From an uncultured Solirubrobacterales bacterium (GTDB lineage Bacteria; Actinomycetota; Thermoleophilia; Solirubrobacterales; Solirubrobacteraceae): DNA of 64,000 bases. This document shows positions 9,990 through 63,206 of the stretch, in pieces. The number at the start of each line of letters is the position of its first letter. The first letter of the stretch is position 1. A model generated the notes under the pieces. It was not told the origin of the DNA, did not search any database, and saw only the letters and a list, made by a program, of their open reading frames with translations. The stretch is taken from positions 551,699 to 615,698 of the forward strand of contig CAVXDH010000002.1 of the NCBI GenBank assembly GCA_963760545.1, read 5' to 3'. Position numbers and translations under genes: made by a program.

Positions 9990-10029
9990 CGGGCGAGCGG
10001 CGGGGTGCGCGCCGTGTCGAGGAGATCCG

Positions 10030-43722: not shown

Positions 43723-43796
43723 TCCGGGGTAGCTCAACTGGCAGATGCGCTCGACTGTTAATCGAGAGGTTGTGGGTTCGACTCCCACCCCCGGAG
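43723..43796 (+). tRNA. tRNA-Asn (GTT)
   Basis: Cloverleaf with acceptor tccgggg/ccccgga, anticodon loop ctGTTaa and T-arm gtgggttcgactcccac. Confidence 0.9.
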
Positions 43797-43809
43797 CTTC
43801 TGAATCGTT

Positions 43810-47030: not shown

Positions 47031-47104
47031 GGGCCCGTAGCTCAGTTGGTTAGAGCCGCCGACTCATAATCGGTTGGTCCCAGGTTCGAGTCCTGGCGGG
47101 CCCA
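47031..47104 (+). tRNA. tRNA with CAT anticodon (Met, or more likely lysidine-type Ile2)
   Basis: Acceptor gggcccg/cgggccc, anticodon loop ctCATaa. The anticodon stem and variable loop (gccgaCTCATAAtcggt tggtc) resemble E. coli ileX as I recall it. No encoded CCA. Confidence 0.9.
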
Positions 47105-47106
47105 CT
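47062..47106. repeat. attL core: 45-bp direct repeat (3' part of the tRNA)
   Basis: actcataatcggttggtcccaggttcgagtcctggcgggcccact, identical to 62978-63022. Confidence 0.9.
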
Positions 47107-47107
47107 C

Positions 47108-47137
47108 AAGAATCCTGCATAATTATGCGGGATTCTT
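47108..47137 (+). terminator. hairpin immediately after the tRNA / attL core
   Basis: aagaatcctgcata at tatgcgggattctt forms a 14-bp stem with one G-U. A related hairpin follows the attR core. Confidence 0.45.
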
Positions 47138-47273
47138 GGGTAGGAGGTAGTGCGTACCGTCCCACGACGCGCTTTGGGGCCACTCTTGGGGCCACCCGCC
47201 CCAGAAAGATGTCCCAGCCGCTGACCATCAGTGCGGTTGTTCGGGCGCCCGGTCATTCGCGCGCGTAGTAGCG

Positions 47274-48128
47274 CTACTGTGGCTTTGTCGCGTAGGCGCC
47301 GATGATTGTCGGCCAGAGCGAGATGCGTCCGACCGGTCCGGTGTCGGCACGCAGACGCTCGGCGAGGGTGTCGATGTCCACTTCCTCCTCGGTTGCCACA
47401 CCGGCAGCCACGATCCCGGGCAGCAAGCTGCGGGCATAGTCAACGGCCTCGGAGACTGCCTCCTCACCAACGGCAATCGCGACTTCGCTGTCGAGGTCCA
47501 GGCTGGGCCGCAGGCCGGCTTGCGCGAACGTCGCGGGCAACCGCATTCCCATGTCCGGCTGCGTGCCCAGCCCGCCGAAAGCGCCATCAATCCACTCGCT
47601 GAGCTGCTCAGACGCCGGAGTGTGCGGCCAGGACACCAAGAACCTCTGCGGTATCGCAGACCCCACGCGCATGCACATCTCCGCGAACACGACCACCCCA
47701 CCCGGGCGTACATGGCGTGCCGCGGCCCGCACCGCCGCGGGCGGGTCACCCTGGTACATCAGCACGAGCCGCCCGACCAACGCATCAAACGGGCCACCGG
47801 CAAGCTCGACCTCGCGAAAGTCACCGCACACGAACTCGACGTTCTCGATGCCGGCCTCGGCCGCCCTCTGACGCGCCCTCTCAAGCGCCTGCTCATCACG
47901 CTCGACCCCGACCACCGAACCGTCGGCGCCGACTAGCTCTGACAGAAGTAAACTGACATCGCCCGGCCCGCAGCCCACATCGAGGACCCGCATCCCGGGC
48001 TCGATCCCCGCGCGCGCCAGCAGACGGCGCGTGAACGGCGCATACATGTCGGCCTGGCGGGCCAGCCGCTCGTGCTCACCTTCGTTGGATGCACTCAACG
48101 CATACCCAGGGTCTCCCGTGGCTGACAC
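47274..48128 (-). CDS. class I SAM-dependent methyltransferase (small-molecule type)
   Basis: RVLDVGCGPGDVSLLL...VVGVERDE...DALVGRLVLMY. No DNA-methyltransferase motifs (no DPPY/NPPY, no PCQ). Confidence 0.85.
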   Translation of the reverse strand: MSATGDPGYALSASNEGEHERLARQADMYAPFTRRLLARAGIEPGMRVLDVGCGPGDVSLLLSELVGADGSVVGVERDEQALERARQRAAEAGIENVEFVCGDFREVELAGGPFDALVGRLVLMYQGDPPAAVRAAARHVRPGGVVVFAEMCMRVGSAIPQRFLVSWPHTPASEQLSEWIDGAFGGLGTQPDMGMRLPATFAQAGLRPSLDLDSEVAIAVGEEAVSEAVDYARSLLPGIVAAGVATEEEVDIDTLAERLRADTGPVGRISLWPTIIGAYATKPQ

Positions 48129-48351
48129 GCCGGGAGAGTCTACGCACGCCCGTCAGCCACCGTGGGGCACCCTGCGTCCTCGAAGCGGATACGGCTGCGG
48201 CCTCAGCGCAGAGAAGCAGCAGTCGGCTACGAAACCGTGAACGAGGCGCGCGGTCTACTCGATGCCTGCGCCAGCCCGCTCGCTCGTTCGAGCGCACACC
48301 CACGAAACTCGTCCAGGAACAGACCCGACTAACTAATCCGAGTTCGCAGAA

Positions 48352-48365
48352 CGAACACCAGTTCG
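48352..48365. promoter_or_regulatory. LexA-box-like inverted repeat CGAAC-N4-GTTCG upstream of the TIR gene
   Basis: aCGAACaccaGTTCGt has perfect 5+5 arms and lies 27 bp before the ATG at 48392, in a locally AT-richer stretch. Confidence 0.4.
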
Positions 48366-48391
48366 TCCTCGGTGCTTGATAAACCTAATAG

Positions 48392-49204
48392 ATGGATCGA
48401 GCTGCCTACGAACGTGCGGTCCGGCAGGCGGAAGCCGAACGTCGTCGGCAGATCGATGCGTACAACAGGCAAGTGGATGAGTTCAACCGCCGGGAACGGC
48501 AGCGCGTTGAACGAGAGATCAATGAACACAACCGCCGGGCTGAGCAGCACAACCGGGCAGAAGAACAGCGCGTGCGTGAGGAGGAGCGTCGCGTCAACGA
48601 GCACAACCGGCGCGTCCATCAGCAGAACCAGCGGGCTATCGGCGATTACAACCGCAACATCGGTCAGGTCAACGCCCACAACACAGCCGTGATCGCCGAC
48701 CTCCAGAACCGGCTCCGCGCCGCCACGTCAGGCACTCGCTACACGGTCGATGAGGAGGTGCTTGCTAACCGCATTCAACGGGCGGTCGCACCGCTTGACG
48801 AGCGAGAGTGGGACGTGTTCCTCAGCTACGCGCGGATCGACGGTGGCGAAGCAGGGGACATCCTGCGACAGCAGCTCGAAAGTCTCGGAGTGAGGGTCTG
48901 GTTTGATGAGATCGCGATCCAGCCAGGTAAAAGCCAAGCTCGCCAGATGGACCAGGGGCTACAGAAGGCGCGCGCGGGGGTCGTGCTCCTCACGCCCGCC
49001 TATGTGGCCGGACGCTTCTGGACCGAGCGCGAGCTTGGTGCTCTCCTCCACAAGGAGACGCTGATCCCAGTGCTCGACGGCGTGACCTTCGAGCAGGTGG
49101 CAGAGTACAGCGGCATCCTCCCCGATCTTGCAGGTTTCGAGACGGCACGGGACCCGCTCGAAGCCATCGCGCAGAAGATCGCAGCTGCTGTCCTAACCGG
49201 CTGA
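48392..49204 (+). CDS. TIR-domain protein with N-terminal Asn-ladder coiled coil
   Basis: The C-terminal EWDVFLSYARIDGGEAG...VWFDEIAIQPGKS...VVLLTPAYVAGRFWTERELGALL is a TIR fold including the W-x-x-E motif. The N-terminal 105 aa is charged and helical, with recurrent (E/Q)HNRR. Confidence 0.85.
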   Translation: MDRAAYERAVRQAEAERRRQIDAYNRQVDEFNRRERQRVEREINEHNRRAEQHNRAEEQRVREEERRVNEHNRRVHQQNQRAIGDYNRNIGQVNAHNTAVIADLQNRLRAATSGTRYTVDEEVLANRIQRAVAPLDEREWDVFLSYARIDGGEAGDILRQQLESLGVRVWFDEIAIQPGKSQARQMDQGLQKARAGVVLLTPAYVAGRFWTERELGALLHKETLIPVLDGVTFEQVAEYSGILPDLAGFETARDPLEAIAQKIAAAVLTG

Positions 49205-49314
49205 CCACGCCCACGTTGGCACACGCCATCTCCAAGAGCAAAGTCGAGCCTGTTGCTGTGGTTGTGCGCCGCCGTGGCTCCTGCGTAATCCGGGCGTCGG
49301 CCAGCAGAGAGATC

Positions 49315-50163
49315 CTACTCGCCGCTCTTATCAGGGGCGCGCAGATACTTCTCGGGCATCGCCACGACTCTCACGTCACGCTGCGCCGCCCGGAGCCTCA
49401 TTCCAGCGTCGCCAGTCACGAGCGACACCTTGTTGGGCTTCCCCATTAGCTGTTCAAGTTCGGTGCAGACGGATATGATTGAGCGGTCCGCATCCGGGTC
49501 GCGCGGGTCATCCGAGAACGCCAGCTGGACCTCGATCGTCACGTCCTCCCGCACTCTGCCCGGCGAGCCACCAGGCCCGACATCTCGCTCGAGATTTGTG
49601 AGCGCGGCGCGTGCTCTGCCGCGCACCTTGTCCTTGCCCGTGTACTTGAGCTCGTCGAGCTCGTCAACGACGGTGATCGGCAGGAACAGGCGCACAGGCT
49701 CGACACCGACGATCTCCCTCCAGTTCACCTGCTCGGGTGGCAGGAAGTGCAGTAGAAGATGGGTGTCCAAGACTGCGATATGTCCGGCTGCTTCCGTCGC
49801 TCGCTCGATGCGGCGCTTCAAGTCCTCTGCAACACGCTCCAGGGTGGCTTTCTGGAGTCTGATCTCGCTTTCGATCGGATGCGCGGGCCATGGAGTCTGC
49901 GGGTGCGCTTCTCGGATCGCCCAATAGCCCCGAGTGTGCAGGAGCGAGTCGATTCGCAGCTCGTCGGTGAAGTTCCCGAGCTGGCTTTCGGCCTTGTCGA
50001 CCCAGGTCATGTAGTCCTGCTGTCTCCGACGAAACGTCTCCCAGACATCGGTGGAGACGGCGGACTTGCCGGGCAGGTTACGCAGCTCGATTAGGAGCTC
50101 GTCCAGGATCTCCAGGGCTCGCTCGGGCGTCGCACCGGGCTTGAGCGGGAGGCGGCTAGCCAT
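49315..50163 (-). CDS. PIN-like nuclease domain protein with N-terminal helical domain
   Basis: Acidic quartet candidates are VLDTHLLL, TVVDELDELK, DADRSIISV and LVTGDAGMRLRA. Start at the internal ATG at 50163. Confidence 0.65.
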   Translation of the reverse strand: MASRLPLKPGATPERALEILDELLIELRNLPGKSAVSTDVWETFRRRQQDYMTWVDKAESQLGNFTDELRIDSLLHTRGYWAIREAHPQTPWPAHPIESEIRLQKATLERVAEDLKRRIERATEAAGHIAVLDTHLLLHFLPPEQVNWREIVGVEPVRLFLPITVVDELDELKYTGKDKVRGRARAALTNLERDVGPGGSPGRVREDVTIEVQLAFSDDPRDPDADRSIISVCTELEQLMGKPNKVSLVTGDAGMRLRAAQRDVRVVAMPEKYLRAPDKSGE

Positions 50164-50217
50164 GCCGCACAGCGTACTGGCGCGCAAAGTAGCCGAAGCG
50201 TGAGGGACAATTGATGG

Positions 50218-50793
50218 ATGCCCTTCGCGCTTCCCGGCTACAACCTCGCGTGCGGTCAAGTTGTCTGGTGGGTGACGAAGAATCTCGCAAGGGAAAGCGA
50301 CCCGGTGCTCAGCCAGATCAAGGTAGTGCCGATGAAGGGCACCGTGTCGAGCGTCGTGGAGACGCGGGACGACATCGCGCTTGACCTTCCAGCGGAGCCC
50401 GTCGGATTCGAGCTTGGCGTCAAAGCGGAGGATGTGCGCGATGGGAACTTCGAGGCTCTACAGGTGAAACTCGTCGAGGCCGCTGACGGGTACGCCGAGC
50501 AGCTAGCGAAAATGCTCTACGGGAACCTCGGCAAGATCACCACCGCCACCGGGAACACCCTTGACGCGGGAGGGCGCCCGCTCACCTTCGCGATGCTGTA
50601 CGAGATGCTCGACAAGATGGAATGGAGACTTGATGAGAACGACGAGCTGTCAACACCATCTCTGGTCATGCACCCAGACACGGCGTCGAAGCTCCCCCAG
50701 CCGACGCCCGAGCAAGTGAAGATGATCGAGGAGTTGAAAGCCCGCAAGCTGGAGGAGTTGCTTGCTAAGCGACGCCGTCGCCGCCTATCTTGA
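50218..50793 (+). CDS. hypothetical protein (first gene of two-gene operon)
   Basis: ORF with no recognisable motif and an acidic core ending in a KRRRRR tail. An alternative start at ATG 50332 would give 153 aa. Its 3' end overlaps the next ORF. Confidence 0.4.
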   Translation: MPFALPGYNLACGQVVWWVTKNLARESDPVLSQIKVVPMKGTVSSVVETRDDIALDLPAEPVGFELGVKAEDVRDGNFEALQVKLVEAADGYAEQLAKMLYGNLGKITTATGNTLDAGGRPLTFAMLYEMLDKMEWRLDENDELSTPSLVMHPDTASKLPQPTPEQVKMIEELKARKLEELLAKRRRRRLS

Positions 50794-52300
50794 GTCCGTC
50801 TCCGAGCGGGCGTTTGACGAGCCTTTGATGGCTCTGTTGCGGGCGCGCGGGTTTGCGTCCGTGCGGCTGGTCCACGGCGCGCGCGAGTTCGGGAAGGACG
50901 TGATCGCCCGACGCGATGGCGAGCAGTGGGGCTTCCAGTCGAAGGCGGGTGACATAGGGCAACCTGAGTGGAGAACGCTCACCGGCCAGCTTGACGAGCT
51001 GCGCGTTGTCAACCTCGGACATGGAGCGTTCAACACAGAGCTGCCGCGCCGCCCAGTGTTGGTCACGACCGGCCGGCTCGTGGGCAACGCGCCGGAGCTT
51101 TACGGCGATTACAACAAGCGGGCCAACGAGAGAGGCGAGCCCGAGCTGGAGCTGTGGGATCGCGACATCCTGCTCGGCCACCTCGCGAGTGATCCCGAGT
51201 CGGTGCTGAGCGGGTCGATCGACGGCCAGCTCATGTCGATCTTGGGCGCTGCCGAGGCGCGTTCGGTGACGATGCCAGAGCTGGAGGTGTTCTCGCGTCG
51301 GTGGATGGCGTGGGAGCCGGAGCGACTGGCCGGGCTCGGGGTGATAGAGGCAGCGTTGGTCTGCGAGAAGCTACGGGGCGTTGATCGACTCGACCTTGCT
51401 TGTCATCTTGCGTTGTGCCTCGTGCGCGCGGTGTGGGCCTCGGGAGCGACAAACCTGCCCGATGACATGTCGGCCACCGCGGCAAGATCACTGTTCGAGG
51501 CGTATGCCCGCGCGCTGTGGGAGAAGTGTGGCGACGAGCTGCTGGAGCACCCGCTGCTCAATGACATCGAGTTCGGGGGATGGGTGACGTACCCCGTGCG
51601 CTGCGTGAGGCTGGCCGAGATCCTTGGTTTGCTGGCGCTGCTGGTGAAGGAGTCCGACCCGGAGCTGTGGGGGGAGATCTCGCGGTGGCTGGTGACGCTC
51701 TGCGAGAAGCAGCCCGGCGTAGCCCATCCGATCAGCGACCAGTATGCCGTGAGCGTCATCCCCGCCGTCCTCGCGCTCGCGAGCGTCGATCGAGTAGCGG
51801 CGGAGACGCATCTCAAGAGATGCACCATCTGGCTGTGCGATCGTTACGAACGCGACGCGCTCGGCCTCGCGCGCGAAGACGCGACTTCCGATGAAGAGGT
51901 CGAATATCTGATCGGCGGCCCGTTCGAAAGCGTGCAGCTCGAACGGCGCCCAGACTCACTCATAGCTCCCGTGCTCCTCGACCTCGCCGCTGCGCTCGGA
52001 TCGACAGACTTGTACGGCGACATTTACAACGACGTGTTGGCCGTGCGTATCTGCCCGCAAGTGCTCCGCCTCGCTGACGGGCCAGACCAGTATTCCCGCA
52101 CCGGCAATGGAAATCGCATCGATCCAAACGTCGATTTCGCAGAATCACTGGCTGACGAAGGGATCGTCGCGCCGCACTACAACGACAAGGCAGGGGACAG
52201 CCAAGTCGCGAGCGGGCACGCATGGGACCTGCTCGCCATCGGATCGGCGCTGCGCGATCGGTACTACGTCCGCGCGCTGGCGTCGCTCGCGGACGAGTAG
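50762..52300 (+). CDS. Mrr-type (PD-(D/E)xK) restriction-endonuclease-like N-domain fused to ~370-aa helical domain of unknown function
   Basis: The N-terminus (ERAFDEPLMALLRARGFASVRLVHGAREFGKDVIARRDGEQWGFQSKAG...VLVTTGRLVGNA) matches the Mrr_cat pattern D-x(n)-(D/E)-x-K, here GKDVIA...QSK. The rest is unassigned. Confidence 0.55.
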   Translation: MLSDAVAAYLESVSERAFDEPLMALLRARGFASVRLVHGAREFGKDVIARRDGEQWGFQSKAGDIGQPEWRTLTGQLDELRVVNLGHGAFNTELPRRPVLVTTGRLVGNAPELYGDYNKRANERGEPELELWDRDILLGHLASDPESVLSGSIDGQLMSILGAAEARSVTMPELEVFSRRWMAWEPERLAGLGVIEAALVCEKLRGVDRLDLACHLALCLVRAVWASGATNLPDDMSATAARSLFEAYARALWEKCGDELLEHPLLNDIEFGGWVTYPVRCVRLAEILGLLALLVKESDPELWGEISRWLVTLCEKQPGVAHPISDQYAVSVIPAVLALASVDRVAAETHLKRCTIWLCDRYERDALGLAREDATSDEEVEYLIGGPFESVQLERRPDSLIAPVLLDLAAALGSTDLYGDIYNDVLAVRICPQVLRLADGPDQYSRTGNGNRIDPNVDFAESLADEGIVAPHYNDKAGDSQVASGHAWDLLAIGSALRDRYYVRALASLADE

Positions 52301-52625
52301 ACCGCGCTCGTGGTCTCCGACTGGCCCACCGGATACGTGCGCGAACTTACGAGCGAGACCAATAGTGAATGCGGCGTGATACCGGGTAGCGGAGTGCGCG
52401 GACTGCCGCGCCAGATGGCTTACTTGTCGTCCAGTGGGCAAACGGAGCGTCGCGATGATTAGACGTTTGCCTCCCACCCGTAAGCGCCAGCATCCCGTCG
52501 TCCAAGGACAGCGCGCTCGCTCACACCTTGGCTCGCTCCGAGACCCGCTTGGGGTAGTTTCTATGCGTGGCGTGCATGCTCGGTAAGAGGTTGGTCCTCG
52601 CGGCCCAGAGCGCGGGGCGTTGTAG

Positions 52626-53759
52626 GTGAGTGACCAGCTGCTTTGCTGGGATCGCGCCTGGCTGCGGTTTGCCTGCATGAGCGGCCTGGTCGTGTTGATT
52701 GCAGCGCTTGGCCTCATTCTCGCTGCCTGCGGTTCCTCCGCAGGGACGGCGACAGCGAGCGTAGTACGCCTGTCCCCGTCCTGCATACCGCCCGAATTCA
52801 GCAAGCGGGGGTTGCTTGGACCCCGGCGGCCGCTCCCCAAGGCGCTCTCGACTCCGCTGGACGCCGCGATCTTGTCCAGCTTCACCATCTTTCGCAGACC
52901 CCGGCTACCGAGCGATGAGCCTCCGGGGCTGAACCTGGCGGCCAACGGACTGGGCCGCGAGCTCTACAAGACCTACAAGCTCTCGAGCTACTACCCCGCC
53001 TACGTCCGCCAGCTAACGAGGCTCCCCGACGGTAGACGCTATTTCGTGATCCCGGCGTACGGACGGCCCGAAGCAGTCGTCCCGGCCCACTGTCTGGCGG
53101 GCGGGGAGCGTGCTCGGCGCGCACTGGTCGAAGAGCAGCACCGGCGCCTGGTTGAGCCGGTCGACTGCATCATCGAGATGGGAGGCGGTGAAAACGAACC
53201 TCCCCAAGGATGCGAGCCGTTCGCTGCAATCGACGAAGGTGAGCGGATATTCCAGTCGGACGACTTGTACAAGGAACCGACCGTCGAACTGGTGCCCGAT
53301 GGTGTCGCTTCGGTTCGGATCGAATACAGGGAAACGTCCGCGATCACCGTGCCGGTCAGCGAAAACACTTTCCTGTTTACACCACCACCGCCGACGCCTC
53401 GTGTCGAGGCTGAACTGAAACGGCTGGAACGGCTGCAACGGATGGAGCCCGTGATCGTGACGACGCACCCCACCACGGCCCAGCGTCCTACGGCCCAACG
53501 TCGCCGTATCACGTTGCAGTGGGACAAGACTGTGGATGAAACCGAGCCGACGCGGATCGAATGGCTCGACAGCGCCGGTCGCCTAGTCCGCGCCCTCAGC
53601 CCTCCTACCGCCGAAAGCAGCTCTGCTACCTCCGTTGGCAACCTCGATGCTCCCCTCGAAGGCAGCTTCACCCTCCAGTCATCTAGGTCATCGCCAAGTG
53701 ACCGTCGGAGTGCTTCGGAGCACCGCAGCATGACTAGTCCTGTTCACGGGCATCGCTAG
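52626..53759 (+). CDS. putative secreted lipoprotein of unknown function
   Basis: The signal peptide has a lipobox (LVVLIAALGLILAACGSS). No other motif. An alternative start lies at 52677. Confidence 0.5.
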   Translation: MSDQLLCWDRAWLRFACMSGLVVLIAALGLILAACGSSAGTATASVVRLSPSCIPPEFSKRGLLGPRRPLPKALSTPLDAAILSSFTIFRRPRLPSDEPPGLNLAANGLGRELYKTYKLSSYYPAYVRQLTRLPDGRRYFVIPAYGRPEAVVPAHCLAGGERARRALVEEQHRRLVEPVDCIIEMGGGENEPPQGCEPFAAIDEGERIFQSDDLYKEPTVELVPDGVASVRIEYRETSAITVPVSENTFLFTPPPPTPRVEAELKRLERLQRMEPVIVTTHPTTAQRPTAQRRRITLQWDKTVDETEPTRIEWLDSAGRLVRALSPPTAESSSATSVGNLDAPLEGSFTLQSSRSSPSDRRSASEHRSMTSPVHGHR

Positions 53760-53836
53760 CGCTTTTGCCGGCAGAGCGGGCGCGTCCGGGCGCCGCGACT
53801 AAACCGGCCGCCCTGGCGTCTACCATCGATTGGTCG

Positions 53837-54844
53837 ATGAGTACCAACGCTTGGAGAAAGAACCACACCGTGAGCGCCGGGCTCGTGCGGCGCTTCGCTG
53901 GTACCACGCCCGGTGGCAAGCAGGTCACGGTGCATCACCGACTGAAGGGCCAATACGACGAAGGCCCAAACGGCGTCGGCTACGAGTTCGACTACTGGGG
54001 CCCGCCAGACCTCGCCGAGAAGGTCGAGGGAATCCTCGCCCGCATTGAGTCTGATGCACTCTCCTTGTTCAGGAATCTTGAGTCTCGCTGGCCCCTGACG
54101 GACGGGGATCGCATAGCGCTTGCACGGTTCGTATCCCTGCACATCGTTCGCACGCGAGCCTTCACGACGTTTCTGGGCGAGGTCGGCAAGGATGCGGCGA
54201 TTGATGCGCTCGGCGAGACTGCAGCCAAGCACAACCTCGACGAGGCCGGGATCGCTCCCTACGCCGAGCTGCTCAAGAGTCCGCACATGCACGCTCAGCA
54301 GGTCATTCGACAGGTGAACCGCGTCGCAAGCCCCTTGCTGAGTATGCACTGGACGATCATCGAGTTCGCCGAGGACCTGCTCATAGGCTGCGATCAGCCG
54401 GTCATCCTGATCCCGTGGGCGAGACCAGACCGGCTTGGGCCGGAGTCCGCGATCCCGCCGTTCGGCATGATGGGCACGTTCGAGGGGCGCTTCACATTGG
54501 ACCCGCGTCACGCGCTTTTGATGACGTGGGTCGAGAGTGCCGATGAGCCATGGATCATCGGCGACCGCATACAGGCGAGCCACATCAACGCCTCCGTCAA
54601 GGCGCTCGCGGTCGATGAATGGTTTCGCCGCCCGGGGACCAACCCGCCGTTCATCTCAGCGCCGCTACTTGAAGAACGAGTGGACCCGATCGCCCCGACT
54701 CTCTTTCGCGGGTATACACCGCAGCGTGCCGTCGCGTCGCCCCGGCGGCGGGTTGCCGAACAGACCGTCAAGAAGATGACGCTAGAGCAGACCCCAGACG
54801 CCGAGGTGCGCTGGGTGCGGTACCAGACTCAGCGTGCGGCTTGA
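53837..54844 (+). CDS. DUF4238-like protein
   Basis: The N-terminal KNHTVSAGLVRRFAG resembles the H-x-V/I-P-x-F-x-L-R-x-F start I associate with DUF4238. Unverified. Confidence 0.45.
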   Translation: MSTNAWRKNHTVSAGLVRRFAGTTPGGKQVTVHHRLKGQYDEGPNGVGYEFDYWGPPDLAEKVEGILARIESDALSLFRNLESRWPLTDGDRIALARFVSLHIVRTRAFTTFLGEVGKDAAIDALGETAAKHNLDEAGIAPYAELLKSPHMHAQQVIRQVNRVASPLLSMHWTIIEFAEDLLIGCDQPVILIPWARPDRLGPESAIPPFGMMGTFEGRFTLDPRHALLMTWVESADEPWIIGDRIQASHINASVKALAVDEWFRRPGTNPPFISAPLLEERVDPIAPTLFRGYTPQRAVASPRRRVAEQTVKKMTLEQTPDAEVRWVRYQTQRAA

Positions 54845-55007
54845 CCCATGCCGCCGAGGTCGGCATCGCTCCCTCGCCGACACTCGCGGGCGTACCGTCG
54901 CAGCCTGTCGCCGTACCGCCTCGGTTTGAGCAGGCACGTCGTCGGCCCGAGACGAGATGCGCGATTGGGACGACACGCGGTAGTTGCGACCTGAGACAAC
55001 CTATCGG

Positions 55008-57656
55008 TCACCGTCCGCGTCCGATGTCGTGATCAGGCGCGTCGCGTGCTGGTGTTCGCAAGAGCTGGTCCACATGAGGAATCAGCCTGCTGAGGCGTAG
55101 CGGATCGCGGCTGGGATCCCACGACGAGCCTGGGGTTTCTCGGTGAGTGACGGATGGTGTGTGTGCTCGACTTCGGGTCATCCGTCCGGCGAGGCGTGTG
55201 ATCTGGTCGGGATCTTGTCCTTCGTTGCCGAGTTGGTCGCGGGCGAGGTACCAGTCGGTGCCGTGGCGGGCGCGGGTGGCTTGTACGTAGGCCGACTCTC
55301 GGCTTGTTTGCCAGCCGCCGGTGAGCACCACGGCACGATCGACTGTCGCGCCCTGTTGCCGGTAGACGTGTTGGGCGTAGGCGAGCCGCAGCGACTCCGC
55401 GTCTTGACGTGCAATTTGCAGCCGGCGGTCTGATCCGTCGAGCGCGAGCGTCAGCCTTCCCTCCTGGTCGATGTTCGTGACTTGGCCGCGAGTACCGTTC
55501 TCGACGCGTGGTTGGCCTTGCGGGCGGTGTTGGGCGATGAACGCGACGCGGTCGCCTTGCCGTAGCCCGTAATGGACGCTTGAGAGCGGAAGTTCGTCTG
55601 GGCCGAGTTCGCCGCGCTGGGCGCGGAGGTGTTGTGCGCGGGCGTTGAGCCTGTCGATCTCCTTGTTCGTGGAATCTGCGATCAGCGCGACTTTGTCGAT
55701 CCCGGCTTCTCTGGTGAGTTCTGCCCAGGCTTGGACGGCGCTCTCGGCGGCATGGTCGCGGGTGTCGGCGAGGTGGAGCCGTCCTTGAGCCTTGTAGTGG
55801 GCCATCGCGCGCTCGGGTTCGCCCGCTCGTAGCGCTTGCCACGCTCGTTGCTCTTGTGGGTCGGTTGTGCGGTGGATCCTCTCCAGTTCCACTGTCGGCG
55901 CGTGGCCTGTGAGCCGGTCGAACATGCCACCCGGACCTATCGAGGGGAGCTGCTGGCCGTCGCCAACCGCGATCAGCTTCGCTCTTGAACCCTCCACCAG
56001 CTCGGTGAGCGCGTCGAGGCGCTTGTGGTCGACCATCCCGGCCTCATCGAGAATGATCGTCGTGTCGGGACCAACATGGACGCTTCCGGTATTTGCTCGG
56101 GCGGTGAGCGCGTCGAGCGTCATCGTGTTTCCTTGAAGCGCAGGGCTGTCGGCTCCAAGCCGCTCAGCCGTCGAGCCGGAGACAGCGATCCCGATCGTTT
56201 CACGACCTGCCAGTTGCTCCGCTCGTGCGGCGGCGTCGATCACGACGCCCTTCCCCGTTCCTGCCGGGCCGACGAGCACGGTTGCACGCTCGGGACCAGT
56301 CAGGACGAGCAACGCCATGTCTTGCTCATCAGTGAGCGGAGCGCCGATACGCTCGGCGACCTCCCGTGCCGCGTTCATCTGTGCGGTGTGGCTGACATCG
56401 CGTCCGGCGGGTCGGGCAAGTACGGCGGCCCGTCGTTCGATTGCCTGCTCCTGTGCGCGGACAGCGAGCGTTGTCATCCGGCCACCCTCAAGTGTCAACA
56501 CGCGCCGATCCCGGATCATCTCCCGCGCTACGTCGAGCGCTTCATGCGGCGCCAGTTCTCCGGCGGTCTGCTCCAGGGCGACGGTGTGCAGGTCGCGCAG
56601 CTCGAAGACGGCGTGACGCTCGGTGAGACGTTCCTCGATCCGATCCTCCACCGACCGAATGGCAGGCCGGCTGCGCTCGCCGGCGAGCAGTCGCAACGCC
56701 TCATCGGGACCGAACCCATAGCGGCTCGCGGTGTCCCTCCACACGTTCTCAAGGTCAGCTCGGTTGGTGAGCTTCTTCGCGCGACGGTTCTCGAGCGCGA
56801 GGTCGCGCAGCTCGCCACGCTCAGGCGCTCGACCGTAGCGCGCACGGAAGCGGTCGGCGGCTCGCGCGACCTCCCTGGAGCGTCCCGAGAAGGCATCACG
56901 CAGCTCCTCGGGGACACCCGCGATCTCGAAATACTTGCCGTCCCTGCCGGTCGCCTGTTCGATTGCGTACCCCTGTGCGGCGAGTTCCTGTGCAAGCGCA
57001 GAGCGGTAGAAGGCGCCGACCTCGCCCGCCGAACGAAATACCGGCCGGGAGGCCACCGCAACGATCCGATCGTCCTCGCGCACCGCGCTCGTGATGACGA
57101 CATGACTGTGGAGCTGCGGATCGGGCGCGTCGGCTCCTGAGACACCGCGCGCCGTTGTGTGCTGGTACTCGACTGCGATCAAGTCCTTGGCTGGCTCCTC
57201 GATGACCTCGCCGCCATAGCGGCGACGGACGACGCCAACGTTCTCGCGCATGTAGGCGACCGCCTGCTCGACCGCGTTTGCGTGGGCTTTCTCGATCTGC
57301 TCTCGCTGCCATGAATCGGCAAGTGCCCAAGTGGTCGATACCGACTTCGGCGCGCTGAAAACGCCGTCGATCCCACCGCCACGGCTGCCGTCGGCACCGG
57401 CACGCCGAAGCCACCGCGCTGTCTGTGGATGGCGACCTTCCATGAGCGCAACGAAGTCCTCGCCGCTCATTGGTGTGTCCGCCCGGATGCCGAGCCTTTC
57501 AAGCGTCTCTGAGTCGGCCAACCATCTTCCCGGAGCCTGGGTCATCTCGCCGTCGGGGGTCAGGTAGTAGTCGCCGCGCTCGGGCGCGACGGTCTTCCCC
57601 TCCAGATATCGGGCGTAGTCGCCACCACGCGCCGCCGGGATGCTCGCTGCGGTCAT
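55008..57656 (-). CDS. traA: MobF/TrwC-family relaxase fused to RecD-like helicase
   Basis: GGDYARYLEG...ERGDYYL (catalytic Tyr pair), HTTARG...DPQLHSHVVI (His triad), and the helicase P-loop LVGPAGTGKG with C-terminal UvrD-like motifs. Confidence 0.85.
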   Translation of the reverse strand: MTAASIPAARGGDYARYLEGKTVAPERGDYYLTPDGEMTQAPGRWLADSETLERLGIRADTPMSGEDFVALMEGRHPQTARWLRRAGADGSRGGGIDGVFSAPKSVSTTWALADSWQREQIEKAHANAVEQAVAYMRENVGVVRRRYGGEVIEEPAKDLIAVEYQHTTARGVSGADAPDPQLHSHVVITSAVREDDRIVAVASRPVFRSAGEVGAFYRSALAQELAAQGYAIEQATGRDGKYFEIAGVPEELRDAFSGRSREVARAADRFRARYGRAPERGELRDLALENRRAKKLTNRADLENVWRDTASRYGFGPDEALRLLAGERSRPAIRSVEDRIEERLTERHAVFELRDLHTVALEQTAGELAPHEALDVAREMIRDRRVLTLEGGRMTTLAVRAQEQAIERRAAVLARPAGRDVSHTAQMNAAREVAERIGAPLTDEQDMALLVLTGPERATVLVGPAGTGKGVVIDAAARAEQLAGRETIGIAVSGSTAERLGADSPALQGNTMTLDALTARANTGSVHVGPDTTIILDEAGMVDHKRLDALTELVEGSRAKLIAVGDGQQLPSIGPGGMFDRLTGHAPTVELERIHRTTDPQEQRAWQALRAGEPERAMAHYKAQGRLHLADTRDHAAESAVQAWAELTREAGIDKVALIADSTNKEIDRLNARAQHLRAQRGELGPDELPLSSVHYGLRQGDRVAFIAQHRPQGQPRVENGTRGQVTNIDQEGRLTLALDGSDRRLQIARQDAESLRLAYAQHVYRQQGATVDRAVVLTGGWQTSRESAYVQATRARHGTDWYLARDQLGNEGQDPDQITRLAGRMTRSRAHTPSVTHRETPGSSWDPSRDPLRLSRLIPHVDQLLRTPARDAPDHDIGRGR

Positions 57657-58059
57657 CACATGAAGTGATGACCGTGAGAAGGCCGAAACGGCCACCGACT
57701 TGCTCACACAGTCGTCACACAGCGCACGCACTCTTGTGCATGTTGTCTGTCGTGGCTGTTTGTCGTGGCTGTTTGGAGCGTCGCGGGCGATGCGGCGCGG
57801 AGGCGACCTTGCAGGCGATGGGTGGTCGTGTGCTCGGCGGAACTCGGGTCAGGTCGGTGGGTAGAGGATGCGCCGTCGGCGCTTGTTAGAAGCGTCTGGA
57901 CAACTGGCCTTTGGCGTTTTGTCAAGTTTGGTGTTGGCAGGGGTGTTCGTCCGTGCTGTTGGCGCGGTTGTTGGGTGCTGCTGGCTGTGCTCGTTGCTGG
58001 TTGCTGGGAGCGGTGAGATGGCACGCCGTGGCCTGATTAGGTGCGCGTGCGGCCTTGGT

Positions 58060-59560
58060 GGCCAGGGGCCTTATGCGGTCTTTGGCGTGCGCAGGGGCCC
58101 TTGTTGCGGGCGCGAGCTCGAGGGCTCGAAATTGCGGATGCGGGCTTGCGCTCGGGTGTGTCGTGAGACGACAGCCGTGGCTGGGTGTGGGCTAGTGGTT
58201 CAGGGCAGGGGCGACCTTTGCGGGGTTGTAGTCGACGTCGCTGTTGACCATGCGCCAGATCACGCGCAGCAGCCGGTTCGCGCACGCGATCACGGCTTGT
58301 CTGGCGGTGAGCCTTTGGCGCAGTGCGCGGTAAAGCGCCCGGAAGGCAGGGCACGCTTTGATGATGTGTCTGGCGGCGTGAAAGGCGGCGTCGCGCAGCT
58401 GGTAGCGGCAGCGCTCGGAGATCTTGCGTTTCGGGGTGCTTTGCCCGGAGTCCCTTGCGATTGGTGCGCAGCCGCCGAGCTTGCCGAGCGCGCGGGCCGA
58501 GCGCAGCCTGCGGACGTCGCCCGCGGCGGCGAGAAGAAGCGCCCGGTCGAGTTCTCTCAGACCCGGCAGGCTGTCCAGGCGTTGCGCTCCGGGAAGTCGG
58601 GGGTAGAGGTGCAAGAGCTCTTCCTCGAGCATTTCGAGCTGGCCTTCGACGAGCGCACGGCGCCGCATCAGCCGCTGCAGCCTGGCGGCGTAGGCGCCTC
58701 TGGCAGCGCGGTATCCGACCGGGCGGCTGGTCTTCTCGATCAGCTGCTTGATCTTGTTGTGCCCGATATGGCGGCCGGGTGCGGCTGCCCGGACTCGACG
58801 CTCAAGCTCTTGCGCGCCGAGCCTGGTTGCACGTGCGGGGTCTCCGCCGGTGACAGCGATCACGGCGCGGGCGGTGACGCCCCGCTCGCCGCCACGGAAG
58901 GTCTGCAGGAACTCGGGCCAGATCGTGTCCAGACAGGTCTTGACCGCGCCGCGAAGCCGACGGCGCTCGCGGCGCAGCCGCAGCCGCTCGAGACACAGCG
59001 CGTGCGCGCACGCCACCGCGGGCGTGTCGGGCCGCACGAGATGGGAGTAGTCAACGGCGCCGGCGAGGGTGCGGGCATCGACACGATCGGACTTGGCGCC
59101 CGTGATGTCCCGCGCGCCGCGCAGCTTCGCGACGGTCGCCGCGTGAACCTGGCGCACCTCAAGGCCCTTTCCGGAAAGCTCCTCCGCGAGTGCCTGCCAG
59201 CGCGTAGCTGTCGGCTCGATGATCACCAGGACGCGACCCTCAAGCCCGGCAAGCTCTCCGAGGAACCCGTCGATGCCATCGCGGGAATGAGTGAACCGGA
59301 GCCGCCGGTCGGTCCCATCCGGTGCCCGCAACACCGCTTCGTGCGCCGCGCGGCGCCCCAGATCGATGCCGACTGTCCACGCGGGCTCGCCCGCGTGGAC
59401 AGTCGCAGTCACGTCCGTCATCCTCTGCATCCAGCCTCCTCCGACAGTGGTTTAAGCCCGCACACACCTGGGCCAATGAGCTACCCGAAGAGGAGGCTGA
59501 CCTACGTCACGGCGGCCACCAACGCACCCCAACTTCCGCGCCAACCTAAATTGCGTGGCC
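58060..59560 (-). mobile_element. IS110-family insertion sequence (ends approximate)
   Basis: Contains the transposase ORF. This family lacks clear terminal inverted repeats and no second copy is present, so the ends cannot be fixed from this window. Confidence 0.35.
58192..59430 (-). CDS. IS110-family transposase
   Basis: The N-terminal DEDD domain is WTVGIDLGRRAAHEAVL...VIIEPTATRW. The C-terminal Transposase_20-like region is LDSLPGLRELDRALLLAAAGDVRRLRSARALGKLGGCAPIARDSGQS. Confidence 0.85.
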   Translation of the reverse strand: MQRMTDVTATVHAGEPAWTVGIDLGRRAAHEAVLRAPDGTDRRLRFTHSRDGIDGFLGELAGLEGRVLVIIEPTATRWQALAEELSGKGLEVRQVHAATVAKLRGARDITGAKSDRVDARTLAGAVDYSHLVRPDTPAVACAHALCLERLRLRRERRRLRGAVKTCLDTIWPEFLQTFRGGERGVTARAVIAVTGGDPARATRLGAQELERRVRAAAPGRHIGHNKIKQLIEKTSRPVGYRAARGAYAARLQRLMRRRALVEGQLEMLEEELLHLYPRLPGAQRLDSLPGLRELDRALLLAAAGDVRRLRSARALGKLGGCAPIARDSGQSTPKRKISERCRYQLRDAAFHAARHIIKACPAFRALYRALRQRLTARQAVIACANRLLRVIWRMVNSDVDYNPAKVAPALNH

Positions 59561-59768
59561 GTTTGGGCGTGCTTACGGTCAATAACTGTATGAGGGCTTA
59601 TGAAGTAGACCAACTACGTCGCTGCTCGTCGGTGCTGAAGTCGTTGGCCGGTCGGGTGGGGTCGTGGTCTATGACCTCGATGGCACCAACTCCAAGGCGG
59701 CGCTTCCCGGCAGCCAGGCAGGCTTCACGAATCATCTGGGCGCGTCCACGTACGAACTGGGCCGCCCC

Positions 59769-60047
59769 GTGAGCGCCACGTTCGTCCAGGTCCTGCTCGA
59801 CGCGCTCGACGGCGACGCGCTCGACACGCTCGCCGAAAGACTCGCGCCGCGTTTGGGTCAGCCTGCCCAAACCGACGGCTGGCTGACAGTGGGGGAGGCG
59901 GCGGAGTATCTGCGTTGCCCGAAGTCGAGGGTCTACAGCCTCGTGTCCGCCCGTCGCATCCCGTTCGTGAAGGACGGCAGCCGGACGCTGTTCAGGCGCA
60001 GCGAGCTTGACTCGTGGCTACGTCGGGGAGGCGGCACGCGACCATGA
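59769..60047 (+). CDS. xis: excisionase-family HTH DNA-binding protein
   Basis: WLTVGEAAEYLRCPKSRVYSLVSARRIPFVKDGSRTLFRRSELDSWL. GTG start at 59769 is preferred over the ORF-track start at 59664. Confidence 0.7.
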   Translation: MSATFVQVLLDALDGDALDTLAERLAPRLGQPAQTDGWLTVGEAAEYLRCPKSRVYSLVSARRIPFVKDGSRTLFRRSELDSWLRRGGGTRP

Positions 60048-60117
60048 AACGACCCTGCCATCCGGCCTGTCTATCATTCTGTCTGGAGCAAGGCACAGCC
60101 ACGACGGAAGAAAAGCC

Positions 60118-60339
60118 ATGAAGCGCAGCGAAACAGAAGCCGGTACCCCGATCATCGAGTTCACTCCCGAGGAGTACGACGCCTATCTCGAACGGGAGGT
60201 TCGTCGTGGGGTCGGGATGAGTCGGGCGGAGTTCGTCCGCGCGTACAGCGCCGGCGAGCTTGACGACGCGGACGCCGCCGTGGGCGAGCTGGTCGGGCTG
60301 CTCCGGATCGGCCAGAACGGGCATCGAGCTGTCGCGTAG
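60118..60339 (+). CDS. hypothetical small acidic protein
   Basis: A 73-aa ORF with a ggaag SD-like sequence upstream. No motif. Confidence 0.4.
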   Translation: MKRSETEAGTPIIEFTPEEYDAYLEREVRRGVGMSRAEFVRAYSAGELDDADAAVGELVGLLRIGQNGHRAVA

Positions 60340-60856
60340 GGCAGCGCAGCGCCTCGTAGATCGTCTCAACGGCGTTCTCAACAGCACGGTCAGCGACTCG
60401 CGGCTGTCGCTGATTCAGTTGCCGGGTGATCCCGGCACCTTCGAGTTGACGAGGCTCATAGACGGAGACACCGCACCGCTGGAGTTGCATGGGACCACAG
60501 TCCACCTGTTCGTACGCTACGTGATCGTTGTCAAAGACGGCGACTTCAGCATCGAGTCTTATGCCTATCGTCTTCAAACTGGCAGATCGCGGGCTTCGTG
60601 GCTCATCCGTTGGGAGTATCAGCGCGATTCCCCGCGCTCGGACTACCCGTACGCCCGTGCGCACGTTCACGTGCGTGGAGCGTTCCCCGACGGTCAGCAG
60701 GCCGACCGGCTCCACATCCCGACGCTTCGTGTACCGCTCGAGCTGGTCCTGTGGCACCTGATCGCCGAGTGGGGCGTAAAGCCGAAGCGCGACGACTGGC
60801 AGCAGCAGCTCGAAGCGTCGATCGACGGCTTTGACGGCAGACGGCTCGCGCAATAG
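60260..60856 (+). CDS. hypothetical protein
   Basis: ORF with coding-like composition. Only TTG starts are available (60260, overlapping the previous gene, or 60418). Confidence 0.4.
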   Translation: MTTRTPPWASWSGCSGSARTGIELSRRAAQRLVDRLNGVLNSTVSDSRLSLIQLPGDPGTFELTRLIDGDTAPLELHGTTVHLFVRYVIVVKDGDFSIESYAYRLQTGRSRASWLIRWEYQRDSPRSDYPYARAHVHVRGAFPDGQQADRLHIPTLRVPLELVLWHLIAEWGVKPKRDDWQQQLEASIDGFDGRRLAQ

Positions 60857-60892
60857 AGCTGCCGCACCTGTTCGGAGCGGACGGTCGGCCGC

Positions 60893-61147
60893 TCAGCGCT
60901 CGGCTTCGACCGCGGCGGCCAGCTCCGCCATTGAGATGCCAAGGGCCTCGGCGATCTTGCGCACGGTCCACCAGGCGGGTGCGCTCTTTGCCGACTCCAC
61001 ACGGCTGACCGTGCCGAACGTTGTCCCCGCGCGGCTGGCGAGCTCTTCTTGCGTAAGCCCGCGCTCCTCGCGCAGGCGACGGACGGCTCGGCCAAGGTCA
61101 GGGTCGCCTGGAAGTCGTGGTGGCATAGCACGGAGACTTTCACGCAT
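60893..61147 (-). CDS. XRE-family HTH transcriptional regulator
   Basis: LGRAVRRLREERGLTQEELASRAGTTFGTVSRVESAKSAPAWWTVRKIAEALGISMAEL. Confidence 0.8.
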   Translation of the reverse strand: MRESLRAMPPRLPGDPDLGRAVRRLREERGLTQEELASRAGTTFGTVSRVESAKSAPAWWTVRKIAEALGISMAELAAAVEAER

Positions 61148-61358
61148 AGGCGCTCAAGTCCATGCGCTTGACCACATGCGTGTAAGCATATAGACTGGTC
61201 TTCATTCCATATGCAGATGCGGGGCGCGCCGCCAGTAGCAGCCGCCCCGCGTGGCACCGAGAGCGTCAACTCCCGGCACGCCAGCCAAGCTACCAGTCCG
61301 GCAGCGCGGCTTCCTTGCCCGAGCAGTCCTCCGGGGCCTCCAACCACAAGGAGGAACC

Positions 61359-61592
61359 ATGAGTACCGATTCCGTCCCGCCCACAAGCCCCCAGGGCGTC
61401 CTCTTCTCGCTGCTCGCCGAAGACAGGCCGTGGACCGTTGAGGAGATGATCCGCGAGAAGGGCGAAGGCAACCGAGTCGCCGTCGTCGATGCGCTGGCCG
61501 AGCTGGAGGCAATGGGTCTCGTGACACGGATCAACAAGCGCGTCATGTGCGCGTCGCGCGCAGCTCTGAAGGCAGACGAGTTGAGCGTCTGA
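61359..61592 (+). CDS. small winged-helix-like protein (element regulator candidate)
   Basis: A strong SD (aaggagga) lies 7 nt before the ATG. The motif is WTVEEMIREKGEGNRVAVVDALAELEAMGLV. Confidence 0.55.
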   Translation: MSTDSVPPTSPQGVLFSLLAEDRPWTVEEMIREKGEGNRVAVVDALAELEAMGLVTRINKRVMCASRAALKADELSV

Positions 61593-61638
61593 TGGGAGTT
61601 TCCAACCGATACACCTCCTACGATCAAATGGAGGTGTG

Positions 61639-62946: not shown

Positions 62947-62977
62947 CAGTCGCAAACAGCCGCAAAGCCCGTAGCGC

Positions 62978-63022
62978 ACTCATAATCGGTTGGTCCCAGG
63001 TTCGAGTCCTGGCGGGCCCACT
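62978..63022. repeat. attR core: second copy of the 45-bp tRNA 3' segment
   Basis: Exact copy of 47062-47106. It lacks the D-arm and 5' anticodon stem, so it is not a functional tRNA. Confidence 0.9.
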
Positions 63023-63206
63023 AAGGAATCCCTAGCAACCATGCGGGATTCGCCGGGTTAAGCGGTTCGGCGTGAGGGTTGTTTGGGAGGCAGATCGGTG
63101 GCTCGTGTGCCCATATGTGCCCAAACGAGACCGCTAACCGGGTTCTGCGACGCACTAACAGGGCAGGCGAGCGAGTCCCGTCCTATGCGGCACGTAGCTT
63201 GTTGTA

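Follow-up and report, generated by a model that had tools for sequence, protein, structure and literature searches.

A mobile two-gene cassette encoding an Mrr-type nuclease and an obligate partner with possible kinship to HK97-fold capsid proteins: a candidate defence module

Nuclease cassettes of two genes, carried on mobile elements, are well known among candidate defence systems. One described system close to the locus presented here is Olokun (OloA/OloB), a defence system reportedly introduced by Millman and colleagues in 2022. It is composed of two genes, encoding OloB, a protein of ~550 amino acids (aa) in which a PD-(D/E)xK domain is joined to a helical domain, and OloA, a large adaptin-like protein (bioRxiv 10.1101/2025.07.10.664194). 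A second point of comparison is provided by the Family 4 'A-domain' encapsulins, which are ~100 aa long, consist of the A-domain only, match PF08967 (DUF1884) and are encoded downstream of metabolic enzymes; they occur only in thermophilic archaea and in two genera of Bacteroidetes, and no nuclease partners have been described for them (PMC8346489). Here we describe a pair of overlapping open reading frames, ORF1 and ORF2, located in a 64,000-nucleotide (nt) stretch of DNA from an uncultured Solirubrobacterales bacterium (assembly GCA_963760545.1, contig CAVXDH010000002.1, positions 551,699 to 615,698), referred to below as the window. ORF2 encodes an Mrr-type nuclease fused to a long helical domain, and ORF1 encodes its obligate partner. 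The pair was not described in the literature searched (the library was not exhaustive), and in PADLOC v2 it matched no system beyond a weak match of the nuclease domain to OloB.

Organization and distribution of the gene pair

The ORF1-ORF2 pair is an ancient, self-contained and obligate cassette. Its occurrence was examined by a scan using one genome per GTDB species, which returned 80 loci (taxonomy was taken from the record titles). An ORF1 homologue was located directly upstream of ORF2 in all 76 loci in which both flanks were present. The two genes are inherited together, with the pairwise identities of ORF1 and ORF2 co-varying strongly (Mantel r 0.86, compared to a permutation maximum of 0.21). 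All-against-all clustering of 1396 neighbouring ORFs from the 80 loci identified no third conserved gene. Next in frequency among the neighbour clusters came a tyrosine recombinase, in 11 loci, and a TrwC relaxase, in 8, and in 18 of the 80 loci the same integrase or relaxase cluster was present within 10 kb.

The pair was found in at least 10 phyla. Its carriers include Actinomycetota (Solirubrobacterales, Kribbella, Mycolicibacterium, Mycobacterium, Microbacterium, Micromonospora, Terrabacter), Bacillota (Bacillus, Paenibacillus), Acidobacteriota, Chloroflexota, Myxococcota, Bacteroidota, Planctomycetota, Verrucomicrobiota, Gemmatimonadota and Eremiobacterota, as well as metagenome-assembled genomes (MAGs) labelled proteobacterial. 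The distribution is patchy, with about 99 matches among 185,579 species representatives, a figure limited by the sensitivity of the search pattern. At least 339 full-length ORF2 homologues (505-540 aa) were identified. For ORF1, 106 homologues were retrieved by word index, while an exhaustive profile search (E <= 1e-3) yielded 2095 clusters at 50% identity, with a length of ~190-220 aa in nearly all of the 150 clusters listed. The cassette is therefore both large and old as a family, the number of ORF1 clusters being accompanied by an ORF2 architecture that is fixed from Actinomycetota to Bacillota and Bacteroidota. Recurrence of the gene pair with the same overlap across phyla is far beyond chance. 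Close copies of the window genes were also found: ORF2 is 98-99% identical to a copy in the chromosome of an uncultured Solirubrobacterales MAG (OY970270.1), and ORF1 is 100% identical to family member P0121, a protein encoded on contig_10339 of that MAG's assembly.

The preliminary description of this locus, made from the sequence alone, had reported an operon of two ORFs overlapping by 32 nt, divergent from a PIN gene and accompanied by no cognate methyltransferase, ATPase or helicase. All of this was borne out: the PIN gene lies on the minus strand beyond a 54-nt intergenic region, and none of the three enzyme types was conserved with the pair across the 80 loci. The overlap is exactly 32 nt in 57 of the 76 loci and 20-56 nt in the remainder, except for two outliers, one with a 209-nt overlap and a split ORF2 (L040) and one lacking a start codon at the inferred position (L061). 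ORF2 is in the +1 frame relative to ORF1 in 75 of the 76 loci. In the window, the C-terminal end of ORF1 reads ...E-E-L-L-A-K-R-R-R-R-R-L-S-stop, and the TTG start codon of ORF2 falls inside ORF1. This start, as well as the ATG of ORF1, is backed by the conserved N-termini of homologues. At the homologous position, ORF2 begins with ATG in 32, TTG in 27 and GTG in 13 of the 76 loci. The GGAGGAG sequence in the Glu-Glu codons of ORF1 ends 4 nt before the ORF2 start (6 nt when measured from the end of the GGAGG core), and a GGAGG-like purine-rich stretch occurs at the same position in most of the loci.

The conserved overlap together with the internal Shine-Dalgarno-like sequence suggests that ORF1 and ORF2 are translationally coupled, in which case the two proteins would be made in a fixed ratio. 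The overlap, conserved across phyla, places constraints on both proteins. A programmed frameshift fusing ORF1 and ORF2 was also considered. It is unnecessary, because a start codon is present at the homologous position in 72 of the 76 loci and is preceded by the Shine-Dalgarno-like sequence. An imperfect inverted repeat surrounding the beginning of ORF1 may represent an operator or a translational hairpin. No promoter was found upstream of ORF1 in a sigma-70 consensus scan; it should be noted that promoter and terminator consensus scans are uninformative in this high-GC genome.

The ORF2 nuclease and its ORF1 partner

The N-terminal part of ORF2 had been assigned to the Mrr_cat-like modules, and this assignment is correct: residues 11-137 match PF04471 above the cut-off (E 1e-5, 26 bits versus 21). 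Alignment of 58 cross-phylum homologues revealed four invariant residues in this region (E15, E42, D46 and K61), with Q59 and T103 present in 56 of the 58. In total, E15, R16, H38, G39, E42, G44, K45, D46, Q55, Q59, K61, G63, Q76, T103, G104 and W132 are kept in at least 54 sequences. We propose that D46 and Q59-S-K61 are the catalytic residues, with the VTTGR motif at positions 101-105. Since the residues of the head are conserved across phyla and the catalytic motif is intact, the nuclease looks active. The fold of the head resembles that of the Holliday-junction resolvase Hjc (1ob8; Foldseek against PDB, probability 0.94). No second match beyond Mrr_cat was obtained for ORF2 in Pfam or NCBIfam, and its sole PADLOC match was to OloB (PDLC03926, E 7.6e-5, 20 bits, model positions 6-148 of 556). 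ORF2 is strongly acidic (isoelectric point 4.7, net charge -31).

The AlphaFold2 (AF2) model of ORF2 (predicted local distance difference test score, pLDDT, 88.9; predicted template-modelling score, pTM, 0.86) comprises an alpha/beta nuclease head followed by ~20 helices. The body formed by these helices carries a conserved polar constellation: E175, W181, R222, Y277, E286, D326, W357, G368, S399, D407, R498 and R500 are kept in at least 54 of the 58 sequences. The preliminary description recognised no motif in this body, and the searches made here assigned it to no family or fold. Foldseek of the whole of ORF2 against PDB returned nothing below E 0.1, sequence searches of PDB with profiles of ORF1, ORF2 and the ORF2 C-terminal domain gave nothing meaningful, and there was no recurrent Pfam match among 39 diverse ORF2 bodies scanned. 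In Foldseek against PDB, the body drew only generic helical-repeat proteins of the tetratricopeptide repeat (TPR) and solenoid kind (E >= 0.1, TM 0.1-0.2); we do not regard the domain as TPR. Both the partner protein and the ~360-aa domain are thus without a Pfam or NCBIfam family.

A profile built from the body only retrieved the same ~505-540-aa architecture or fragments of it (120 of 156 matches listed). Because no other architecture was found among the matches listed, we no longer consider the body to be a sensor module that different effectors have in common. In this respect the body, called 'sensor-like' in the earlier account, differs from typical modular defence sensors.

ORF1 was initially regarded as a small acidic partner of unknown nature. 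The partnership stands, but the protein is not featureless. Two matches to models of HK97-fold major capsid proteins, both covering the same central region, were obtained for the window ORF1: PF25209 (residues 37-155 to model positions 55-161 of 262, E 0.026, 15.2 bits versus a cut-off of 27) and NF042927 (residues 67-159 to model positions 96-182 of 280, E 0.0042, 16.1 bits versus a cut-off of 80). We then relied on the family, and 133 diverse ORF1 members were scanned singly against NCBIfam, Pfam and PHROGs. The sole recurrent NCBIfam family was NF042927 ('HK97-fold major capsid protein'), matched by 10 of the 133 members with a best E value of 1.5e-7. Four Pfam capsid families were matched, PF25209 (3 members), PF20036 (E 0.0023), PF05065 (E 0.0075) and PF13252 (E 0.0075), together with two PHROG 'major head protein' families. 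As capsid families make up a tiny fraction of these libraries, chance matches should not concentrate on them. It should be noted that the ORF1 members are interrelated and the capsid matches are therefore not independent events.

In the AF2 model of ORF1, an N-terminal helix and a short hairpin precede a helix of 34 residues (78-111), which is followed by a mixed region and then by a long helix at the C-terminus. No fold match was found with Foldseek against PDB; the best viral match was a P22 coat protein entry of 181 aa in BFVD (TM 0.45-0.47, E 1.1). On balance, we lean towards the view that ORF1 is related to HK97-fold capsid proteins, having diverged from them and being truncated at the C-terminus, and it appears to descend from a phage capsid protein. 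ORF1 itself is not a capsid protein, because its scores are far below the cut-offs, the pair has no head-gene neighbourhood and phage collections lack it. Among its conserved or nearest neighbours there were no genes for a portal, terminase, protease or scaffold, no homologue of ORF1 or ORF2 was detected by tblastn in 50,697 phage genomes (INPHARED), and IMG/VR, scanned with ORF2 only, contained no homologue. The encapsulin family PF08967 was not matched by the window ORF1 and was outside the 25 families found most often in the 133 members; ORF1 was also without a PADLOC match at E <= 1.

With respect to charge, the earlier label 'acidic' applies to the body of ORF1 (about -11; isoelectric point of the whole protein 5.1) but not to its 26-residue C-terminal segment (166-191), which carries about +6, and of the two proteins it is ORF2 that is strongly acidic. 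The segment ends in a tail with the family consensus (R/K)(R/K)Rx(R/K)(R/K)L(S/P). Because this tail is kept across phyla, including low-GC genomes in which the overlapping ORF2 residues differ, it is evidently selected in its own right.

Several variants of ORF1 were observed. In two loci (L077, positions 8829-10032; L171, positions 802-1995), ORF2 is preceded by a tandem pair of ORF1 paralogues, both of which carry a basic tail, and P0252 and P0297 are single proteins with two ORF1 repeats. The existence of tandem paralogues and fused duplicates suggests that ORF1 probably self-associates and may work as an oligomer. Other variants are N-terminal fusions of a helix-turn-helix (HTH) domain, of the XRE type (HTH_31) or the ArsR type (HTH_20), to ORF1. 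In three such loci (L173, positions 158-2546; L174, 1183-3676; L175, 280-2773) the nuclease gene follows with the exact 32-nt overlap, and one HTH-bearing variant matches a HipB-type antitoxin model. These HTH-fused forms point to a regulatory or neutralising role of ORF1.

Genomic context of the cassette

The segment of the window downstream of tRNA-Met is an integrative mobilisable element, and ORF1-ORF2 is part of its cargo. The coordinates of the element, the gene pair and the neighbouring features are listed in Table 1. Besides the pair, the cargo includes genes for a small-molecule-type methyltransferase, a TIR protein, a PIN_4 protein, a putative lipoprotein and a DUF4238 protein. The mobile element with defence-type genes around the pair that had been suspected from the sequence is therefore present. 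The TIR protein matches PADLOC model PDC-S66 over its full length (E 2e-33) and also ThsB models; it is likely a stand-alone defence gene, outside the ORF1-ORF2 cassette. The DUF4238 protein of the window matched no PADLOC v2 model. A single DUF4238-domain protein, encoded by a different gene, protects E. coli against T7 (PMC9122126). In sister contig L005, an insertion sequence (rve/HTH transposase) is located between ORF2 and the DUF4238 gene, in place of the 377-aa ORF. The PIN, TIR and methyltransferase genes were considered as components of the system and rejected: none of them shows conserved linkage to the pair, the PIN gene being found with it in just 5 closely related loci of Solirubrobacterales.

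Table 1. Coordinates of the gene pair, its domains and the surrounding features in the window
Feature	Position	Strand	Basis or remark
ORF1, 191-aa partner protein	50218..50793	+	ATG start; ORF table and homologues
ORF1 residues 37-159, aligning to the central part of HK97-fold major-capsid models	50326..50694	+	PF25209, NF042927
ORF1 predicted C-terminal helix, residues 164-189, ending in basic tail KRRRRRLS	50707..50790	+	AF2 secondary structure
GGAGGAG, Shine-Dalgarno-like, within ORF1 Glu-Glu codons	50751..50757	+	sequence
Dual-coding overlap, 32 nt: ORF1 tail and stop / ORF2 codons 1-11	50762..50793	+	ORF2 in +1 frame
ORF2, 512-aa nuclease and helical-domain protein	50762..52300	+	TTG start
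Mrr_cat PD-(D/E)xK nuclease domain, ORF2 residues 11-137	50792..51172	+	Pfam PF04471
Family-specific all-alpha domain, ORF2 residues 151-512 (~360 aa)	51212..52297	+	AF2
Intergenic region between PIN gene and ORF1 (divergent), 54 nt	50164..50217	.	gene-caller PIN start at 50163
Imperfect inverted repeat, 15 nt, 80% complementary, 9-nt spacer	50195-50209 / 50219-50233		spans ORF1 ribosome-binding site and start codon
Integrative mobilisable element, ~15.9 kb, at tRNA-Met	47031-63051		
tRNA-Met	47031-47105		
Direct repeat of tRNA-Met 3' half (att)	47062-47135 and 62978-63051		first 45 nt identical
tRNA-Asn	43723-43797		~3 kb upstream of tRNA-Met integration site
TIR protein, 270 aa, Arg/Glu-rich N-terminal region and C-terminal TIR	48392-49204	+	PADLOC PDC-S66
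PIN_4-domain protein, divergent from ORF1	49315-50163	-	maximal ORF reaches 50259; gene callers start at 50163
Putative lipoprotein, 377 aa, N-terminus …LILAACGSS…	52626-53759	+	no family match
DUF4238 protein	53765-54844	+	Pfam E 4e-16
TrwC relaxase gene	55008-57731		
Tyrosine integrase gene	61636-62946		adjoins right-hand repeat

Elsewhere, the pair was found in defence islands, one with Mrr_cat, HEPN_Apea, CAP12-TIR and NERD genes (L003) and another with GmrSD, an MmeI-type restriction-modification enzyme and PNP_UDP (L172). It adjoins a ParE toxin-antitoxin pair in L004. In a Rhodococcus megaplasmid (L088) it lies beside genes for an ATP-dependent endonuclease and a large DEAD helicase. 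It was also identified in an integrative/conjugative element with integrase, ArdC and PRTase-CE genes (L170) and in a type IV secretion conjugative element (L171). Defence or mobile-element genes were present within 10 kb in 7 of the 8 contexts annotated with Pfam or RefSeq, an uncontrolled count. The PADLOC-matching neighbours included DRT-type reverse transcriptases, SoFic and the candidates PDC-S01, PDC-S24, PDC-S68 and HEC-05. In the genome of Patulibacter americanus DSM 16676, a Y-family polymerase gene was found ~8 kb from the cassette. Taken together, the surveyed contexts, which range from islands, elements and a plasmid to chromosomal sites with heterogeneous neighbours, indicate that the cassette inserts in many places, of which many, though not all, lie in conflict or mobile-element neighbourhoods.

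Proposed function and comparison with known systems

The interpretation that we prefer, although our confidence in it is evenly divided, is that ORF1-ORF2 forms a self-contained, horizontally mobile two-component nuclease conflict module, most likely serving in defence against phages or mobile elements. ORF2 would be the effector, a DNA endonuclease with an N-terminal Mrr-type PD-(D/E)xK domain mounted on a private ~360-aa helical domain, which would gate the nuclease and provide the docking site for ORF1. ORF1 would act as the obligate regulatory or sensor subunit: its basic helix and tail could bind the very acidic ORF2, and in this complex the nuclease would be held inactive. A cue from an invading element would then remove or remodel ORF1, and the freed nuclease would cut DNA, so that the invader is destroyed or the infection is aborted. 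Speculatively, the capsid ancestry may point to phage head-assembly proteins as the cue. In a more specific form of this proposal, which we regard as doubtful, ORF1 would be a domesticated HK97-fold capsid protein, truncated at the C-terminus and serving as a decoy or guard: it would oligomerise and restrain the nuclease with its Arg-rich tail. The nuclease would be released once the capsid-assembly machinery of a phage, which could be its major capsid protein, scaffold or prohead protease, engages the decoy.

Several observations weigh against the preferred interpretation or the capsid link that it includes. The capsid matches of the window ORF1 itself are sub-threshold in both PF25209 and NF042927, and its AF2 model is only moderate (pLDDT 71.9). 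Comparison of the ORF1 family with HK97 gp5 by hhalign was not significant, a weak test because the gp5 target profile, built from IMG/VR sequences at least 94% identical, lacks diversity. The helical C-terminal domain of ORF2 was never found on other effector heads among the matches listed, which is atypical for defence sensors, and a net charge of -31 is unusual for a DNA-binding nuclease. The Patulibacter americanus DSM 16676 copy (L001/L016) resides in an ordinary chromosome, immediately upstream of lexA. Heterogeneity is also seen in the genes closest to the pair in 68 loci, where 133 proteins represent 94 Pfam families; housekeeping genes such as those for RNA polymerase beta', ribonucleotide reductase and Cpn60 are among them, as is methylmalonyl-CoA mutase. 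Finally, in an uncontrolled count, only a handful of neighbours match PADLOC models.

The same anatomy also fits a toxin-antitoxin-like addiction module, which is the main rival, though in our judgement an unlikely one. ORF2 would then be a nuclease toxin and ORF1 its coupled antitoxin, and the pair would stabilise its carrier elements or plasmids without dedicated phage sensing. The order of the genes and their overlap are as in typical type II toxin-antitoxin pairs, the N-terminal HTH of some ORF1 variants is reminiscent of autoregulating antitoxins (the HipB-type match included), and the pair travels on mobile elements, near relaxases, with one copy next to a ParE pair. However, the ORF1 family is long, well conserved and structured, not short and labile as an antitoxin would be, a toxin of this size, enlarged by a conserved domain of 360 aa, would be unusual, and many copies are chromosomal with no mobile element visible within 10 kb. 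Addiction would not be exclusive of defence, as many toxin-antitoxin pairs also protect against phages. An unusual type IV (modification-dependent) restriction enzyme, in which ORF2 would cut modified foreign DNA with ORF1 as an accessory or specificity subunit, is improbable. The Mrr_cat domain, the annotation of homologues as 'restriction endonuclease' in the source records and the absence of a methyltransferase conserved with the pair agree with such an enzyme, whereas the position of the catalytic domain (N-terminal, not C-terminal) and the strongly acidic character of ORF2 do not. Furthermore, ORF2 showed neither an Mrr_N winged helix nor a reader of modified bases such as SRA or YTH, and, to our knowledge, type IV enzymes have no obligate capsid-like partner.

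Two further explanations take the pair out of immunity. If ORF1 built facets or a shell in the manner of encapsulins or satellite capsids, enclosing or scaffolding ORF2, the capsid-model matches of the family, the P22 coat protein entry as best viral fold match (TM 0.45-0.47) and the tandem and fused ORF1 copies would be readily accommodated. The Family 4 encapsulins set a precedent for a truncated HK97-fold protein sharing a two-gene operon with an enzyme (PMC8346489). Nevertheless, such a structural, non-immune role is very improbable: ORF1 spans only about two thirds of the capsid model, at scores far below the curated cut-offs, matches neither PF08967 nor other encapsulin families, is not accompanied by portal, terminase, protease or scaffold genes, and there are no homologues in phage genomes (either protein) or IMG/VR (ORF2 scanned). 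A housekeeping nuclease of DNA repair or recombination under SOS control is extremely unlikely. This explanation draws on the Patulibacter americanus pair, directly upstream of lexA and with a Y-family polymerase gene nearby, and on the Hjc-like fold of the nuclease domain, but it is contradicted by the patchy distribution, the lack of conserved synteny and the carriage of the pair on mobile elements.

If both the capsid link and the defence role of the preferred conflict-module interpretation are true, the pair would be a case of a nuclease that took a structural protein of a virus as its regulatory or sensing subunit, and would offer a way to test how late stages of infection are sensed. Were the decoy proposal correct, the cassette would be an immune system with a captured viral structural protein as its sensor, present in at least 10 phyla and thousands of sequence clusters. 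Homologues occur in culturable hosts (Mycolicibacterium, Kribbella, Micromonospora, Rhodococcus, Bacillus and Paenibacillus), so experiments are feasible. Cassettes of such hosts include those of Mycolicibacterium septicum DSM 44393, Bacillus sp. T33-2, Paenibacillus baekrokdamisoli and the Rhodococcus qingshengii plasmid pdjl-6-4.

Compared with known systems, the pair shares with type II toxin-antitoxin modules a small upstream gene that overlaps the downstream nuclease gene (by a conserved 32 nt), HTH-bearing variants of the small protein and carriage on mobile elements. In contrast to typical components of such modules, ORF1 and ORF2 are much larger and more conserved, and neither matches a toxin or antitoxin family, save for the fused HTH domains. 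With respect to HK97-fold capsid proteins (NF042927 capsid_Caudo_2, PF25209, PF05065, PF13252, PF20036), ORF1 members align to the central portion of the models, and the predicted long helix of ORF1 is placed where the capsid spine helix would lie. However, ORF1 is shorter (191 aa versus ~260-385 aa), scores far below the cut-offs, has a helix and an Arg-rich tail instead of the C-terminal third, and is found neither in phage structural-gene neighbourhoods nor in phage genome collections. The Family 4 encapsulins resemble the pair in being truncated HK97-fold derivatives whose genes form conserved two-gene operons with those of enzymes, with which a complex has been proposed (PMC8346489); ORF1 differs from them in its length of 191 aa, the lack of a PF08967 match and its partner, which is a nuclease.

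Olokun, like ORF1-ORF2, has two genes, one of them for a nuclease subunit combining PD-(D/E)xK and helical domains. The similarity to OloB is confined to the nuclease domain, the helical domains being unrelated in sequence, and ORF1 has no similarity to OloA. Finally, ORF2 shares its catalytic domain with the Mrr type IV enzymes (E. coli Mrr, PF04471), including the D...Q-x-K signature and the TTG(R) motif, and these enzymes likewise have no cognate methyltransferase. ORF2 nevertheless fails the Mrr architecture: its catalytic domain is N-terminal, Mrr_N is missing and the private 360-aa helical domain follows, while the cassette as a whole adds to the nuclease an obligate, overlapping upstream partner gene.

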